A stretch of DNA of 64,000 bases from Patescibacteria group bacterium (GCA_043803385.1 JAZDKA010000041.1:19799-83798), one strand, 5' to 3'. Counted from the stretch's first letter, positions 1 to 7,209 are shown. The notes: a model not told the origin generated them from the letters alone. Numbers and translations are program-made.

Positions 1-1231
1 GCAGCATGAAAAAGAAGCGCTTATTATTGCTAACGCCGGACAAAAAGGTTCAGTAACAATCGCAACCAATATGGCTGGCCGGGGAACCGATATTAAGCTC
101 GGAGAAGGCGTAAAAGGGCTTGAGGGGCTGTATATAATCGGTACAGAGCGCCATGAGGCCAGGCGCATTGATAATCAGCTTCGAGGACGCTCCGGACGAC
201 AGGGAGATCCGGGAGTTTCAGAATTTTATGTTTCTCTGGAAGACGAACTGATGCGAAGATTCGGCGGAGACAAAATGAAAAATATGATGGACAAGCTTGG
301 CCTTCCAGAAGACCAGCCGATTCAAAATGCTATTATTTCAAAAACGATCGAAAATGCCCAGAACAAAATAGAAGGATACAATTTTGATATCCGGAAGCAT
401 GTCTTGGATTATGATGACGTAATGAACAAGCAAAGGGAAGTTGTCTACAAAAAACGGAAAGAAATTTTGGAATCAAAAAATTTGAAAAGCGAAATCAACA
501 ATGATATTTCGGAAGAAATAGAAAGAATAGTTTCTTTTCACACGGCCGGAGATGAGTTTGATTGGAATTTTGATGATTTATTTTCCGAAGTTAATAATAT
601 TTTCCTAATTAGCGGAGATAATAAAAAACAAATCGAGCTGATAAAAAATGACAAATCAAAAAATGATATAGAGAAAAAGGGAATGCTTCATGATTACCTG
701 ATGGATTTGGCAAAAACTGCTTATGGCCAGAAGGAAAAGGAAATTGGCGAAGAAAATATGCGCCAGGTAGAAAAGATGATTACCCTTCAAACGATTGACA
801 CGCTTTGGATGAATCATTTGGAAGAAATCGATTATCTTCGGGAAGGAATCGGGCTTCGCGGATATGGGCAGAGAGACCCGCTAATTGAATACAAGCGCGA
901 AGCTTTCGATTTATTTTCCCACTTAATGGACAATGTCCGCTCAACTATTGTCCGCACGATTTTCCGGATTCAGGCCACTCCATTATCACAGGCTCAAATG
1001 GAAGATAATAAGAACCTGCAGTTCAAAGGCGCAGATGAAGGAGTGGGACAATTCTCCGCCTTCGCCGGAGCTTCGGCGGACAAGGGCGCCGCCAAACAAA
1101 TGCAATCTTCCGGCGGAGAAAAAAGCGAAGAAGTTAAGCAAAAACCGATAATCAATGCCAACAAAATCGGCCGAAATGACCCTTGCCCATGCGGAAGCGG
1201 GAAAAAATATAAAAAATGTTGCGGGAAATAA
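1..1231 (+). CDS. secA: Preprotein translocase SecA, C-terminal part (5' end lies outside the window)
   Basis: Frame-2 translation from nt 2 gives ...[17 protein letters not shown]...[15 protein letters not shown]... ending in the SEC-C zinc motif [15 protein letters not shown]. No start codon is present, so the gene is truncated by the window edge. Confidence 0.9.
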
Positions 1232-1240
1232 GAATATCAA

Positions 1241-1720
1241 ATGGTTAAAATAGTAAAAAATAGTAAGATGAAAGCAAAAAACAATTTTGTTAAAATTAAG
1301 AAAGCCGGTAAAAAGGGTATTGGATTATTTGCGGGAAAAAATTTCAAAAAAGGAGAAGCCGTATATTCTTTTCCAAGAGGCAAGATAATAAAGAAATCAG
1401 AAATAAAGAAATTAATTTCGAAGGAGAAAAAATATCTGGATTACTATAGGAAAGGCGAGTATGAAATCATGGAGCCACCGGCGCGATGTGTTAATCATTC
1501 ATGTGATCCCAATATTATCGAAAGAAATCGAATTGCCTATACTATAAAACCGATAAAAAAAGGAGATGAAATTACAATTGATTATCGTCCAATTGGCTAC
1601 AGGGAAAAACCATTTAAGTGTTATTGCGGGTCAAAAAAATGCGTGAAACTTATCATGGGCAATGATAATTTATGCTATTGTGAAAGCGGGAAAAAATACG
1701 AAAAATGTTGTGGAAAATAA
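1241..1720 (+). CDS. SET-domain protein (putative lysine methyltransferase) with post-SET Cys cluster and C-terminal SEC-C zinc motif
   Basis: Carries NHSCDPN and EITIDY SET motifs, a CYCGSKKC post-SET cluster, and a C-terminus CYCESGKKYEKCCGK nearly identical to the SecA tail. It starts 10 nt after the secA stop. Confidence 0.7.
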   Translation: MVKIVKNSKMKAKNNFVKIKKAGKKGIGLFAGKNFKKGEAVYSFPRGKIIKKSEIKKLISKEKKYLDYYRKGEYEIMEPPARCVNHSCDPNIIERNRIAYTIKPIKKGDEITIDYRPIGYREKPFKCYCGSKKCVKLIMGNDNLCYCESGKKYEKCCGK

Positions 1721-1850: not shown

Positions 1851-2441
1851 AGCAAAAATATGACGGAAGTTGTTGTTTTAATTGATGGATATTTCAAGAA
1901 TTTATCGAAAACGAGATGTATTGCTGGACCAACCATTACCTTGATAAAGGATGAAGAAAGGAATATCTTAGTTGACACTGGCAATCCCAAAGATAAGGAA
2001 AAAATATTGAAAGCTTTGGCGAAGCATAATTTAGAACCTAAGGATATTGACATTGTAATTAATACCCATTTTCACCCGGATCATACGGGGTGCAATTATC
2101 TATTCAATAAATCTCGTTTTTTGACTCATGGGGTAGCTTTTTGGAATGATATTTTCGATCGGAGCAAAAAACTTCAGGAAATATCAAATAATGTGAAAAT
2201 AATTCCAACACCGGGACATTCTGAAGGCAGCATCACTATTTTAGTGAAAAAGGACAAAAAAATAATTGCAATAGTTGGCGATTTATTTTGGTCAGAGAAA
2301 GATGTTAAGATAGGATTATTGAAAGAAGATTGTACTGATAAAAAACTATTTGGCAAAAATCGTAATAAAATTTTGAAAATAGCAGAGTGGATCATTCCGG
2401 GTCATGGAAAAATGTTTAAAGTGAAAAAATATATAACATAA
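1842..2441 (+). CDS. Metallo-beta-lactamase fold hydrolase
   Basis: Has the HFHPDHTG (HxHxDH) zinc motif and a later TPGHSEGS motif. Length 199 aa. Confidence 0.75.
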   Translation: MLYSKNMTEVVVLIDGYFKNLSKTRCIAGPTITLIKDEERNILVDTGNPKDKEKILKALAKHNLEPKDIDIVINTHFHPDHTGCNYLFNKSRFLTHGVAFWNDIFDRSKKLQEISNNVKIIPTPGHSEGSITILVKKDKKIIAIVGDLFWSEKDVKIGLLKEDCTDKKLFGKNRNKILKIAEWIIPGHGKMFKVKKYIT

Positions 2442-2463
2442 TTCGTCGGTCGACAGAAAAATT

Positions 2464-3552
2464 ATGAAACAATTAAAGAAAATTGAATATAAAAAAATAA
2501 ATAGCCCGTCATTTTTTATTGGTAAGGGAAATAATGATTTGATTTCATTTGGTTCGGGGCAGCCCGATTTGCCGCCACCGCCAGAGATTTTTCACATTCT
2601 GCCAAATTACCGTGATTTCAAATATGGTTTAGTTCAAGGACAGGAAAATTTGCGCCAGGCATTAGCGAAGCAGTATGAAGATGCCAGCGCCGAAAGCTTT
2701 GTAATTACAAATGGTGCATCCGAGGCGCTAGATTTGGTTTTGCGGGCTTTATATGAACCGGGTGCAAAAATTCTTTTGCCTCGGCCTTATTATTATTCCT
2801 ATCCCCACAATGTCCAGCTGGCATTTATGAAACCAGTTTATTATAATTTGGTGCGGGGAAAAATTGATTTTGAAAATTTTTCTAAGCAAATTCAAGGTTG
2901 CCGAGCTGTTTTAATCAATTCTCCGGCCAATCCGACCGGCAGCATCCAGGATCTGGATGTCTTGAAAAAGATTGAAAAATTGGCGCACGACCTCAGCATT
3001 TACATAATTTCTGACGAGGTTTATAAAGACCTTATTTATGAGCGGGAAAATTATCTGTTCAAAGGCAAGAAAATAATCACTCTTAATTCTTTTTCCAAAA
3101 CCTTTGCTATGTGCGGTTTCAGGGTAGGCTATGTATACGCGCGGGAAAAATGGATTATTGAAAAAATTGTGGAGATGAAAACGCATACTTCCATGAACAC
3201 TAATATTTTAGGGCAGGAAATGGCTTTTGAAGCCATAAAAGTGCCGCGAAGTTATGTTGATGCGCAGGTCAAAACTTGGAAGGAGAGGCGAGATTTGATT
3301 TATCACGGCTTGCTGGATTTGGGGCTGGATTTATGGAAACCCGAAGGTGCTTTTTATGTTTTTCCCAGATTCAAAAATCCAAATAAAGTTGTAAATGATT
3401 TATACTATAAGTATAAGATGATTACTTACGACGGGACTTGGTTTGGCGATCCGGCCAGAGTCCGCTTTTCCTATGCACTGGATATTGAAAAAATTCAGGA
3501 GGGATTAAGAAGATTAAAAAAATATCTAAGCAAAGAATACAAAGAAAATTAA
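2464..3552 (+). CDS. PLP-dependent aminotransferase class I/II (aspartate aminotransferase family)
   Basis: Has NSPANPTG and the SFSKTFAMCGFRVGY lysine-region motif typical of fold-type I aminotransferases. Confidence 0.8.
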   Translation: MKQLKKIEYKKINSPSFFIGKGNNDLISFGSGQPDLPPPPEIFHILPNYRDFKYGLVQGQENLRQALAKQYEDASAESFVITNGASEALDLVLRALYEPGAKILLPRPYYYSYPHNVQLAFMKPVYYNLVRGKIDFENFSKQIQGCRAVLINSPANPTGSIQDLDVLKKIEKLAHDLSIYIISDEVYKDLIYERENYLFKGKKIITLNSFSKTFAMCGFRVGYVYAREKWIIEKIVEMKTHTSMNTNILGQEMAFEAIKVPRSYVDAQVKTWKERRDLIYHGLLDLGLDLWKPEGAFYVFPRFKNPNKVVNDLYYKYKMITYDGTWFGDPARVRFSYALDIEKIQEGLRRLKKYLSKEYKEN

Positions 3553-3575
3553 AAAATATTGCAGGAAATACCGGA

Positions 3576-3700
3576 AATTAATTGCTACTACACAATTACA
3601 TATAGTAGTAATAAAAAACATTCTACACATTACTCCGACTGCAGGATTGTGTAGAAAAATTCTACAACACTTAACTCCGGCCGGACGTAAGTGTTATATA
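3576..3700 (+). repeat. Family H structured intergenic element, copy 2
   Basis: Same three-hairpin architecture as 1727-1850. Stem substitutions are compensatory (tata..tata -> tcta..taga; ccgatcgg -> ccggccgg). Confidence 0.7.
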
Positions 3701-3721
3701 AAAATATTTAAAATGTAATTT

Positions 3722-4555
3722 ATGGCAAATAAAGCTAAAAGAAAATATTCGATTGGAGTTTTTGATTCAGGTTTTGGCGGGCTTCAGATTTTGAAACATA
3801 TTGTCAAGGAGCTTCCTGAATATAATTATATTTATCTCGGAGATACAGCCAGAATTCCATATGGAAGCCGATCTCAAGAAAGTATCCTTAATTTTGCCAC
3901 TCAAGCTGTGGATTTTCTTTTCAAAAAAGATTGCAAGCTAATAATTTTCGCCTGTAATACTGTCTCGGCAAAGGCTCTTCGTAAAATTCAGAGGGAATAT
4001 TTACCGAGACATTATCCTGATAGAAAAGTTTTGGGAGTAATTATTCCAGCCGTTGAGGAAGTGACCAGCAAGGGCCACAACGCAATCGGGATTATTGCTA
4101 CGCAAGGCAGCGTTTCTTCCAATGCATTTGTCGAAGAAATAAAGAAAATTAATCCCAATGCTAAAGTTTTTCAACAAGCTTGTCCGCTGCTGGTTCCAAT
4201 TGTGGAAGCAGGCGAGGAAAAATCAAAAGCAACAGGCATAATACTTGAAAAATATCTCAAGTCATTGCTCAAAAATAACATAGATGCTTTGATTTTGGGC
4301 TGCACGCATTACGGTTTTTTAGAGAATAAAATTAAAAAAATAATAGGAAAAAACATTGAAGTTATTAGCGAGGGGAAAATAGCAGCTAAGAAATTAAGAG
4401 AATATTTGTTAAAACATCCTGAAATAGAAAAAGCACTTGGTCAAAGTTCAAAAATAAATTTTTTTACAACTGATTTAACTGAAGAGTTTGAAATTATGGG
4501 AAGCAAATTTTTTGGCAAAAAAATTGTTCCACAGAAAGCAAAAATAGATAAATAA
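3722..4555 (+). CDS. murI: Glutamate racemase
   Basis: Has VFDSGFGGL, FACNTVSA and LGCTHY catalytic-cysteine motifs. Length 277 aa. Confidence 0.85.
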   Translation: MANKAKRKYSIGVFDSGFGGLQILKHIVKELPEYNYIYLGDTARIPYGSRSQESILNFATQAVDFLFKKDCKLIIFACNTVSAKALRKIQREYLPRHYPDRKVLGVIIPAVEEVTSKGHNAIGIIATQGSVSSNAFVEEIKKINPNAKVFQQACPLLVPIVEAGEEKSKATGIILEKYLKSLLKNNIDALILGCTHYGFLENKIKKIIGKNIEVISEGKIAAKKLREYLLKHPEIEKALGQSSKINFFTTDLTEEFEIMGSKFFGKKIVPQKAKIDK

Positions 4556-6126: not shown

Positions 6127-7209
6127 ATGTTTAAAAAATTTGAAAATTTTTCTAAAATGATAGGAGGATTATTCGGTAAAGTTTCCCAGGATATCGGAAT
6201 CGATCTTGGAACAGCCAACACTTTGGTATACGTTAAAGGAAAAGGGATTATGATCAATGAACCTTCTGTTGTAGCCGTTAACAAAAAAACCGGACAAATT
6301 TTAGCTATCGGGAAAGATGCCAAAAGAATGGTTGGAAAAACCCCGAGTCATATTGTGGCAACCAGGCCATTAGTTGACGGGGTAGTGAGCGACTTTGAAA
6401 TTACTGAACAAATGCTCCGCCATTTTATTAATAAAGTCGGAAAGCAATCCTTTTCTCTTATTCCTCGCCCAAGAGTGCTCATTGGAATTCCTTCAGGAAT
6501 AACAGAAGTCGAAAAGAAAGCAGTTGTTGATGCCGCAACCAATGCGGGAGCAAGAGAAGCTTTTCTTATTGATGAACCGATGGCGGCGGCAATTGGAGCG
6601 CGCCTTCCAGTAACGGAAGCAGCGGGGAATATGGTGGTAGATATCGGCGGAGGAACTTCAGAAATCGCGGTAATATCTCTGGGCGGAGTGGTAGTTTCAA
6701 GAAGTTTGCGTGTAGCCGGAGATGAAATGAATGAAGATATCGTGAGATATTGCCGGGACGAATTCAATCTGCTGATTGGAGAGAAAACAGCTGAGGATGT
6801 AAAAATAGCCATCGGAAGCGCTTATCCGATGAAAGAAAGCATGACTCTTCCTGTTCGAGGAAGAGATCTTATCAGCGGGCTTCCAAAAGAAGTTATCGCC
6901 AATGACGAGCAAATCAGGCAGGCATTATCAAGGTCAATCAGGATCATTGTTAATAATATCAAATCGGTAGTAGAAGATACTCCGCCGGAACTTTTGGCCG
7001 ATGTGATGCAAAGGGGGATAATATTGGCCGGGGGTGGAAGTTTGATCCGCGGAATGGATAAATTAGTTGCCAACCAAACTGAGATGCCGGTTAGAATGAT
7101 GGAAGATCCTTTGACAGCCGTAGTTCGCGGAACTGGAATAGTGCTTGAAGATCTTGAAAATCTTAAGGACGTCTTGGTTGAAAGCGAATACGGAAAATCC
7201 CTTATTTAA
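6127..7209 (+). CDS. mreB: Rod shape-determining protein MreB
   Basis: Has GIDLGTANT, EPSVVA and DIGGGTSE actin-fold motifs. Length 360 aa. Confidence 0.9.
   Translation: MFKKFENFSKMIGGLFGKVSQDIGIDLGTANTLVYVKGKGIMINEPSVVAVNKKTGQILAIGKDAKRMVGKTPSHIVATRPLVDGVVSDFEITEQMLRHFINKVGKQSFSLIPRPRVLIGIPSGITEVEKKAVVDAATNAGAREAFLIDEPMAAAIGARLPVTEAAGNMVVDIGGGTSEIAVISLGGVVVSRSLRVAGDEMNEDIVRYCRDEFNLLIGEKTAEDVKIAIGSAYPMKESMTLPVRGRDLISGLPKEVIANDEQIRQALSRSIRIIVNNIKSVVEDTPPELLADVMQRGIILAGGGSLIRGMDKLVANQTEMPVRMMEDPLTAVVRGTGIVLEDLENLKDVLVESEYGKSLI

Follow-up and report, generated by a model that had tools for sequence, protein, structure and literature searches.

How did a small SET-domain protein come to end in nearly the same residues as its upstream neighbour, SecA, and what might such a tail do for it? 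The question is raised by a stretch of DNA from a Patescibacteria group bacterium (GCA_043803385.1, JAZDKA010000041.1:19799-83798), 64,000 nucleotides (nt) in length and hereafter called the window, in which a SET gene (1241..1720, + strand) follows closely on the 3' part of secA (1..1231, + strand). A preliminary description, made from the sequence of the window, had proposed that the encoded protein carries a SecA-type SEC-C zinc motif, and had suggested either targeting to the partner of SecA, whether ribosome or translocon, or a recent duplication of the tail. We find that the SET and SEC-C modules, each well known on its own, occur here in a new combination. The explanation we favour, and consider probably correct overall, is that the 3' end of secA was captured by the SET gene and that the captured copy was subsequently subject to gene conversion. 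The sequences point to a domain capture that is rare but real, and they speak to how the fusion arose rather than to what the tail does.

The SET-domain protein

The gene at 1241..1720 (+) encodes a protein of 159 aa, followed by a stop codon, that is identical to the NCBI entry MFH0969574.1, annotated as 'SET domain-containing protein-lysine N-methyltransferase [Patescibacteria group bacterium]'. Its catalytic SET domain (aa 26-115; 1316..1585, +) scores 56.8 bits against PF00856, for which the cutoff is 22.4, and covers profile positions 1-104 of 105. This domain contains the GxG element (G26, G28) as well as NHSCDPN (85-91) and EITIDY (110-115), and the residues N85, C88, N91, E110 and Y115 are invariant among 90 family members. 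A post-SET CxCx4C motif, CYCGSKKC (aa 127-134; 1619..1642, +), aligns with the post-SET motifs of MLL and SETD2; its three cysteines, C127, C129 and C134, are invariant in 90/90 homologues and are predicted to form the canonical post-SET zinc site together with C88. The SET and post-SET signatures reported in the preliminary description are thus borne out, with the hidden Markov model score for SET far over threshold.

An AlphaFold2 model built on a 90-homologue alignment reached a mean predicted local distance difference test score (pLDDT) of 86.9, with the core above 90, residues 1-11 below 50, and the tail region (141-159) at 70-77 with a short helix at 153-156. Foldseek matched this model to MLL1, ASH1L, SETD2 and vSET with a probability of 1.00, and an NSD module was also matched. 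Because the residues of an active SET domain, those of the post-SET zinc site and the fold matches of the model are all present, the gene product is probably a minimal, apparently catalytically competent, S-adenosylmethionine-dependent protein-lysine methyltransferase. Homologues of the protein begin near residue 10-14, and Met10 (nt 1268) may be the true start, since residues 1-11 are predicted to be disordered.

A SecA-type tail at the C-terminus

Past the post-SET motif, the linker VKLIMGNDN (aa 135-143; 1643..1669, +), delimited by alignment, leads into a SEC-C-type tail. One orthologue shares this architecture: P0002, a protein of 153 aa encoded in the loci L001 and L002 and 62% identical to the window protein (P0001). 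The linker of P0002 reads AKLIMGNYN, and tail-less orthologues stop at about this point. The putatively captured tail, LCYCESGKKYEKCCGK plus the stop codon (aa 144-159; 1670..1720, +), was recognised by its match to PF02810 and by alignment with the secA tail of the window; the terminal residues of the protein, CYCESGKKYEKCCGK (aa 145-159), carry a CxCx8CC motif. The SEC-C assignment made in the preliminary description holds for the motif and its ligand spacing but is borderline in score, as the window protein reaches 20.1 bits (E 5.9e-4) over profile positions 4-19 of 19, just short of the cutoff of 20.4, whereas the tail of P0002, CYCGSELEYKDCHGK, passes the cutoff with 23.3 bits.

The upstream open reading frame is the C-terminal part of SecA, as indicated by Pfam (SecA_SW, 224.7 bits; P-loop_SecA, 121.4 bits; SEC-C, 40 bits) and by matches to the NCBIfam SecA equivalogs (E 4e-101). 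It is open at the 5' end of the window, with its first listed in-frame ATG at 71 and its stop at 1229-1231. We infer that its SEC-C metal-binding domain (MBD; SecA fragment aa 368-386; 1172..1228, +; PF02810, 40 bits) is the donor copy of the SET tail. The two tails of the window are identical in 12/15 aa, a likeness that extends well beyond the spacing of the cysteines, agrees with the near identity first described, and is visible in the DNA too. A tblastn search within the window aligned 21 tail residues at 62% identity (E 1.8e-4). The longest direct repeat returned by a repeat finder in positions 1-2600 consists of two 42-nt copies with 36/42 identical positions (86% identity), one in the secA tail (1190..1231, +) and the other 489 nt downstream in the SET tail (1679..1720, +). 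L001 holds an analogous repeat of 38 nt (76% identity, spacing 451).

Two trivial sources of this likeness were considered and ruled out. Chance similarity is excluded by simulating this 2.6-kb stretch 100 times under a first-order Markov model, which gave a repeat identity of 30/42 at most. An assembly artefact is excluded because the fused architecture is carried independently by the L001 and L002 assemblies, found in an independent ENA assembly and a Logan assembly. A six-frame regular-expression search of the window returned no SEC-C-like motifs besides the two tails.

The four metal ligands, Ser at position 5 and Tyr at position 9 are kept in both SET tails: CYCESGKKYEKCC in the window and CYCGSELEYKDCH in P0002. 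Other positions have changed. Among 106 SecA tails, a sample biased toward window-like SecA, conservation is high at G4 (105), G6 (104), K7 (104), K8 (106), K10 (106) and K/R11 (100). The window SET tail departs from this consensus by G4E and K10E, and the P0002 tail by G6E, L7, K8E and K11D, so that neither retains the full set of SecA-type surface residues. Net charge falls accordingly from about +5 in SecA to +2 in the SET tail of the window, and from +4 to -1 in the case of P0002.

Rarity of the fusion

Relatives were sought by a word-indexed search with the window protein, by a two-sequence profile run against 5.8 billion clusters, and with phmmer, exhaustively, against 1.84 billion representatives; from the 4,504 profile matches the best 120 were considered, and from those of phmmer the best 150. 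Among 295 retrieved sequences, a CxCx8C[CH] tail was found only in P0001 and P0002, by regular expression and manual check, and among the matches listed the score drops from 306 to 180 bits between the tail-bearing pair and the rest. The tail was absent from all 80 loci of the GTDB species representatives scanned, and a degenerate DNA pattern for the NLCYC...C[CH]GK junction gave zero matches in viral contigs. The combination of SET and SEC-C was likewise not found in the literature searched. In the databases searched, the fusion is vanishingly rare.

Members of the family otherwise take two C-terminal forms, either ending a few residues past the post-SET motif or continuing into a conserved helical extension, 'FFxLPxxLQKKYLPY'. 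The extension, in its longer form 'FFxLPxxLQKKYLPY...KEEFKK' (L003 6400-6501; also L005, L010, L014, L018, L019 and others), occurs in many bacterial and archaeal members, has no Pfam annotation, and is an alternative C-terminal module to the SEC-C tail.

Evidence for a single capture

Tail-less orthologues end at about ...KLIMG, the point from which the tail-bearing pair runs on as N(D/Y)NLCYC.... The two SET genes share the junction KLIMGNxNLCYC, with Tyr, not Pro, between the first two cysteines. Their linker and first tail half are common to both (11/13 aa; AATTTATGCTATTG, 14/14 nt) and unlike both secA genes. When the comparison is confined to the SET core, each of P0001 and P0002 has the other as its nearest neighbour, and neighbour joining places them as sisters (bootstrap 136/200). 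Together with the sharing of the fusion by an orthologue that is 62% identical, this is evidence for one fusion that would predate the split between the P0001 and P0002 lineages. The earlier suggestion of a recent tail duplication is therefore supported as to the duplication but not as to its date: the tail is not simply recent, being common to the 62%-identical orthologue, and its 3' two-thirds appear to have since been homogenised with the secA of each genome.

In the explanation we favour, the final ~60 nt of the upstream secA would have been copied onto the 3' end of SET in one small sub-lineage, represented by two sequences. The simplest route would be an in-frame tandem duplication of the segment comprising the secA tail and SET, after which the second SET copy would have been lost. 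The result would be a SecA-type SEC-C metal-binding knuckle placed about 9 residues past the post-SET zinc site.

Probable concerted evolution of the SET and secA tails

The tails were compared at the DNA level with the eight secA tails for which DNA was available, and the secA and SET tails of the window and L001 were aligned as a set of four sequences. The window SET tail is nearest to its own secA (13/17 aa and 39/51 nt, against at most 35/51 for the other secA tails), and the P0002 tail is nearest to the secA of L001, whose SecA tail reads CPCGSGLKYKKCHGK (34/51 nt, against at most 31/51 for the others). The two SET tails match each other at 30/51 nt, and at 18/36 in the 3' part. In a quartet parsimony analysis, gene-type informative sites lie at the 5' end (nt 1, 3, 7, 8) and genome-type informative sites in the 3' part (nt 15, 16, 17, 22, 23, 27, 39, 40, 41), with one conflicting, cross-type site at nt 30. 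The odds of the four gene-type sites being the leftmost of 13 are 1/715, in a test picked post hoc.

Among the genome-type sites are synonymous third positions and the serine codon family (AGC/AGC vs TCA/TCC). Such sites cannot result from selection on the protein and therefore point away from co-selection at the protein level. When compared with pseudo-cognate secA pairs, the true cognate pair ranks 1 of 56, with 9 genome-type sites against at most 7. Leu at tail position 7 is found in 1/106 SecA tails, yet it occurs in both SecA and SET of L001. The CC rather than CH ending was also considered as a rare state linking the SecA and SET tails of the window; it was dropped, as both forms are common in SecA (73/106 and 33/106) and the character carries little weight.

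Because the tails match their cognate secA, while the informative sites follow the gene at the 5' end and the genome at the 3' end, we favour one capture followed by gene conversion, and hold with moderate confidence that, in one lineage or both, gene conversion or re-capture reached the 3' two-thirds of the tail. The tail copies, 40-50 nt long, ~450-490 nt apart and on the same strand, would exchange sequence by gene conversion, with the consequence that the 3' two-thirds of each SET tail would track the secA tail of its own genome. So understood, the locus would provide a small, clean case of a new domain architecture, in which the end module of one gene is taken up by the gene next downstream and both copies evolve together from then on.

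Two independent captures, in which each lineage fused its own secA tail to SET, would make gene conversion unneeded and would account for each SET tail being nearest to the secA tail of its own genome. Abutting genes would ease repeated capture mechanically, and tail-less orthologues abut secA too. The junction and first tail half are, however, shared derived characters of the SET genes, unlike both secA genes, and a comparison of the SET cores by themselves still pairs the two proteins as sisters, making independent captures very unlikely in our estimation.

Several points weigh against capture followed by conversion. Two tail-bearing lineages, a tail of ~50 nt and about 14 informative sites carry all the statistics; pseudo-cognate secA pairs alone reach 7 genome-type sites against the 9 of the true pair; the 1/715 breakpoint test was selected after the data had been seen; and genome-specific codon bias could lie behind some of the synonymous genome-type sites. 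No second SET copy or duplication remnant was found 3' of the tail on reading 1721-1841 of the window and 6463-6613 of L001, and tblastn of SET against the window returned no second SET. The rarity of the fusion rests on top matches only, and distant SET families may hold further SET+SEC-C fusions. The SEC-C score of the window protein lies formally 0.3 bits under the Pfam cutoff. Finally, the closest SecA relatives of the window (65-75% identical; L089, L090) are without a SET gene 3' of secA, so that vertical inheritance of the arrangement is not established.

The secA-SET neighbourhood

In the window, secA and SET are separated by a spacer of 9 nt (gaatatcaa; 1232..1240, +), as established by direct reading, not by the 10 nt given in the preliminary description. 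No terminator-like site was found on the + strand in the spacer region of the window, and promoter-like matches between secA and SET are at background (7 found vs 6.3 expected). Co-transcription with secA is likely on these sequence grounds, and the two genes may be translationally coupled. In orthologues, the junction takes the form of a 4-nt or 11-nt overlap or of a 4-12 nt gap.

Besides the window, secA lies directly upstream of a tail-bearing SET gene in L001 and L002 (P0002; 11-nt overlap), and directly upstream of a tail-less one in L003 (45% identical), L085 (57%; 4-nt overlap) and L092 (4-nt gap). One unrelated gene intervenes in L004 (ASCH-like) and in L005 (MazG-like), two genes in L087 and four in L088; the genes inserted between secA and SET in some genomes comprise ASCH-like, MazG-like, NUDIX, pyrophosphatase and HAD members. 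No secA was found within 5 kb of SET in L086, L093/L094, L009, L062 and the other ~75 more distant loci of the GTDB scan. The adjacency that had been proposed as a check on the locus is accordingly recovered as a proximity of secA and SET recurring in relatives, including seven tail-less loci at a distance of 0-4 genes.

Given that adjacency also occurs in tail-less orthologues and that unrelated genes are inserted in some genomes, the arrangement looks like a conserved gene order rather than a strict or obligatory operon. The neighbourhood is probably older than the tail fusion, to judge from the tail-less orthologues that sit 0-4 genes 3' of secA in seven other loci. What recurs is murB-hpf-secA with a changeable series of small genes (NUDIX, ASCH, DUF1653, SET) after it, and the SET proteins constitute a Patescibacteria family usually encoded in this variable small-gene block just 3' of hpf-secA. 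The hpf-secA neighbourhood offers a weak hint on the substrate of the enzyme.

The SET gene is lower in GC content than secA, both in the window (31% in 1241-1672 vs 42% in 71-1228; window, 37.7%) and in L001 (35% vs 48%). Low GC content as a sign of foreign origin was rejected: the AT-richness of the gene is uninformative on this point because the small accessory neighbours are equally AT-rich and the protein is Lys-rich. In L093, where SET does not adjoin secA, an rve-family integrase/transposase gene (2590-3585) lies 1.4 kb upstream of the SET locus, an observation that fits with the SET block being movable.

Comparison with known systems

The C-terminal MBD of SecA corresponds to about aa 878-901 in E. 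coli SecA and is represented by PDB entries 1SX0 and 1SX1, and by 1OZB in complex with SecB. This domain binds SecB and 70S ribosomes and crosslinks to uL23 (PMC6620043). Its SEC-C motif, CxCx8C(H/C), together with a conserved Ser (E. coli S889) and an aromatic residue (Y893), defines the MBD fold (PMC6620043; 10.1101/613315). The SET tail has the same CxCx8C(C/H) spacing, the Ser after the second Cys, the Tyr, and the C-terminal position ending in ...GK and the stop codon. It differs in its attachment through a 9-residue linker, where the MBD of SecA sits on a long flexible one; in the sequence GNDNL in place of the GRNDP lead-in, with Tyr for Pro between the first two Cys; and in the presence of Glu/Asp for SecA-invariant Gly/Lys, weaker positive charge and a borderline Pfam score.

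MBDs found elsewhere have been taken as a hint of ribosome association (10.1101/613315), and YecA/AscA, YchJ and SEC-C methionine aminopeptidases have been proposed to bind ribosomes or SecB (10.1101/613315; 10.1101/2020.07.21.215244). As in these proteins, the MBD of the SET protein behaves as a portable terminal module on unrelated catalytic or chaperone domains. The fusions in YecA/AscA, YchJ and the methionine aminopeptidases are, however, widespread and old, with SecB-contact residues kept, whereas the SET fusion is known from two sequences, lies beside its donor gene and bears signs of continuing exchange with it. YchJ, which bears SecA-like MBDs, has been reported as a redox-sensing transcription factor (PMC13377102), so that an MBD alone does not imply ribosome binding.

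On the SET side, PBCV-1 vSET, Methanosarcina mazei Go1-SET and the chlamydial cpnSET/NUE are likewise single small SET proteins of about 120-160 aa without reader domains. vSET matches the window protein directly, both in sequence (E 3.2e-5) and in Foldseek (template modelling score 0.76, normalised to the target), and the known substrates of prokaryotic SET enzymes are small basic DNA-binding proteins (PMC3980110). In contrast to these enzymes, the window protein has a complete MLL/SET2-type post-SET zinc motif and an extra SEC-C knuckle, and its host is a free-living or episymbiotic Patescibacterium, not an enzyme-secreting pathogen as in the comparison. The best matches are MLL/SET1, SETD2 and ASH1L (E about 1e-8; Foldseek probability 1.00), with which it shares the NHSC...ELxxDY...CxCx4C arrangement. 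It differs from them in an identity of only about 25-28%, in having no AWS/pre-SET or partner-binding region, and in its prokaryotic context.

What the tail may do

The tail most likely still folds as a zinc or iron knuckle, since neither lineage has lost any of the four ligands, the conserved Ser or the conserved Tyr. Within the favoured explanation of capture and conversion, and by analogy with the SecA MBD, our best single guess, a tentative one, is that the tail might let the methyltransferase dock weakly on the surface of the ribosome. With the drift seen in the interface residues, it is about equally likely that the tail has an altered partner or none. A strong claim of ribosome docking is discouraged by the altered surface, by how rarely the fusion occurs and by the chance that conversion alone upholds the 3' half. 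The proposal that the enzyme may be targeted to the same partner as SecA would seem somewhat weakened, because positions that are invariant or almost invariant across 106 SecA tails carry other residues in the SET tails.

Several functional and non-functional readings of the tail have to be weighed. It may be a neutral passenger, a functionless by-product of local duplication that looks conserved through overwriting from the strongly selected secA. The fusion is found in 2 sequences in a family of hundreds of tail-less proteins, there are signs of homogenisation with secA, and SecA-invariant positions are substituted in both lineages. Against such neutrality, the unconverted 5' part, comprising the linker and the first two Cys ligands, is conserved too (14/14 nt and 11/13 aa, where the SET cores are about 60% identical), and each lineage retains an intact reading frame together with the four ligands, the Ser and the Tyr. 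Most of the differences that separate cognate tails are also synonymous, with about 2 nonsynonymous and 4 synonymous in the window, numbers too small to test. On balance, we regard a functionless tail as a possibility that leans to the doubtful side. The opposite view, functional co-targeting, holds that a working SecA-type MBD docks the enzyme at the partner of SecA, either the ribosome near uL23 or a SecB-like chaperone, and that the likeness of the tails reflects co-selection. It draws on the binding of the SecA MBD to SecB and 70S ribosomes and its crosslinks to uL23 (PMC6620043), on the ribosomal location proposed for the MBDs of methionine aminopeptidases, YecA and YchJ (10.1101/613315), and on a weak match of the NCBIfam methionine aminopeptidase model PRK12318 to the SecA tail. 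The retention of the metal ligands, Ser5 and Tyr9 in both lineages, the 11/13 identity of the linker and first tail half between orthologues 62% identical overall, and the rare Leu7 common to SecA and SET of L001 would also suit it. Nevertheless, the SET tails have lost near-invariant SecA residues (K8 and K10, 106/106; G4, 105; G6, 104) and their charge drops; the synonymous and Ser-codon genome-type sites are inexplicable by protein-level co-selection; and most orthologues have no tail although they too adjoin secA. We consider co-targeting of this kind unlikely.

A more specific form of recruitment would make the borrowed MBD an address tag that brings the methyltransferase to the site of the SecA MBD, which might be the SecA tail or the part of the ribosome surface that lies by the exit tunnel. 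In SecB-less Patescibacteria, the enzyme might there compete with SecA, or its substrate might be a component of the ribosome or of translocation, and the tails would co-vary to fit one partner. Taken jointly, these proposals, built on analogy with SecA, strike us as decidedly improbable. Were they true, this would be the first SecA-type MBD to recruit a protein-modifying enzyme and would give a handle on a SecB-independent role of the MBD. We find it hardest to credit a substrate mimic or autoregulatory element, in which the Lys-rich SecA tail or a lookalike is the substrate and the appended copy is automethylated or acts as a pseudo-substrate near the active site. The tail does start about 9 residues past the post-SET motif, which in SET enzymes helps to form the lysine channel, and ASH1L and NSD1 have auto-inhibitory post-SET loops. 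To our knowledge, however, lysine methylation is not among the known modifications of SecA, and the unrelated inserted genes loosen the adjacency to secA. That the wider SET family adjoins secA, and that the chlamydial SET protein NUE automethylates (PMC3980110), would be in keeping with such a mimic, which we nonetheless hold to be highly improbable.

For the Sec field, the locus adds a data point on the role of the SecA MBD in organisms without SecB, and the 159-aa protein with versus without its 16-residue tail makes a testable construct. If the tail is inert, the fusion is a curiosity of gene evolution.

Other features of the loci

Some features of the related loci bear on secA itself. In L092, the SecA metal-binding domain (1428-1502) has a 5-residue insertion, CPCGATNPDGSPKKYKKCHGK, giving CxCx13CH in place of the usual CxCx8CH, which is unusual for an otherwise near-invariant motif. 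In L089, a 360-kb contig carrying the closest SecA relative of the window, secA (2012-4498) is called as three genes, probably through frameshifts caused by sequencing or assembly error rather than through a real split. Immediately 3' of the P0002 SET-SEC-C gene, L001 contains three tandem copies of an 11-nt unit resembling AATCGTCTAAA (6475-6511).

Across the window (1-64000), ARAGORN found zero tRNA genes, and zero Rfam families were matched at the gathering threshold, which makes this a long interval devoid of recognised RNA genes and riboswitches. The 120-nt intergenic region 3' of the SET gene (1731-1850) holds three consecutive hairpins, with an RNA minimum free energy of -36 kcal/mol (z -6.5 vs shuffles). 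The hairpins have no Rfam match and no other copies in the window. The sequence ACTCCGA is common to two of the loops, and the hairpins could be a terminator cluster or the leader of the downstream gene, which encodes an MBL-fold hydrolase.

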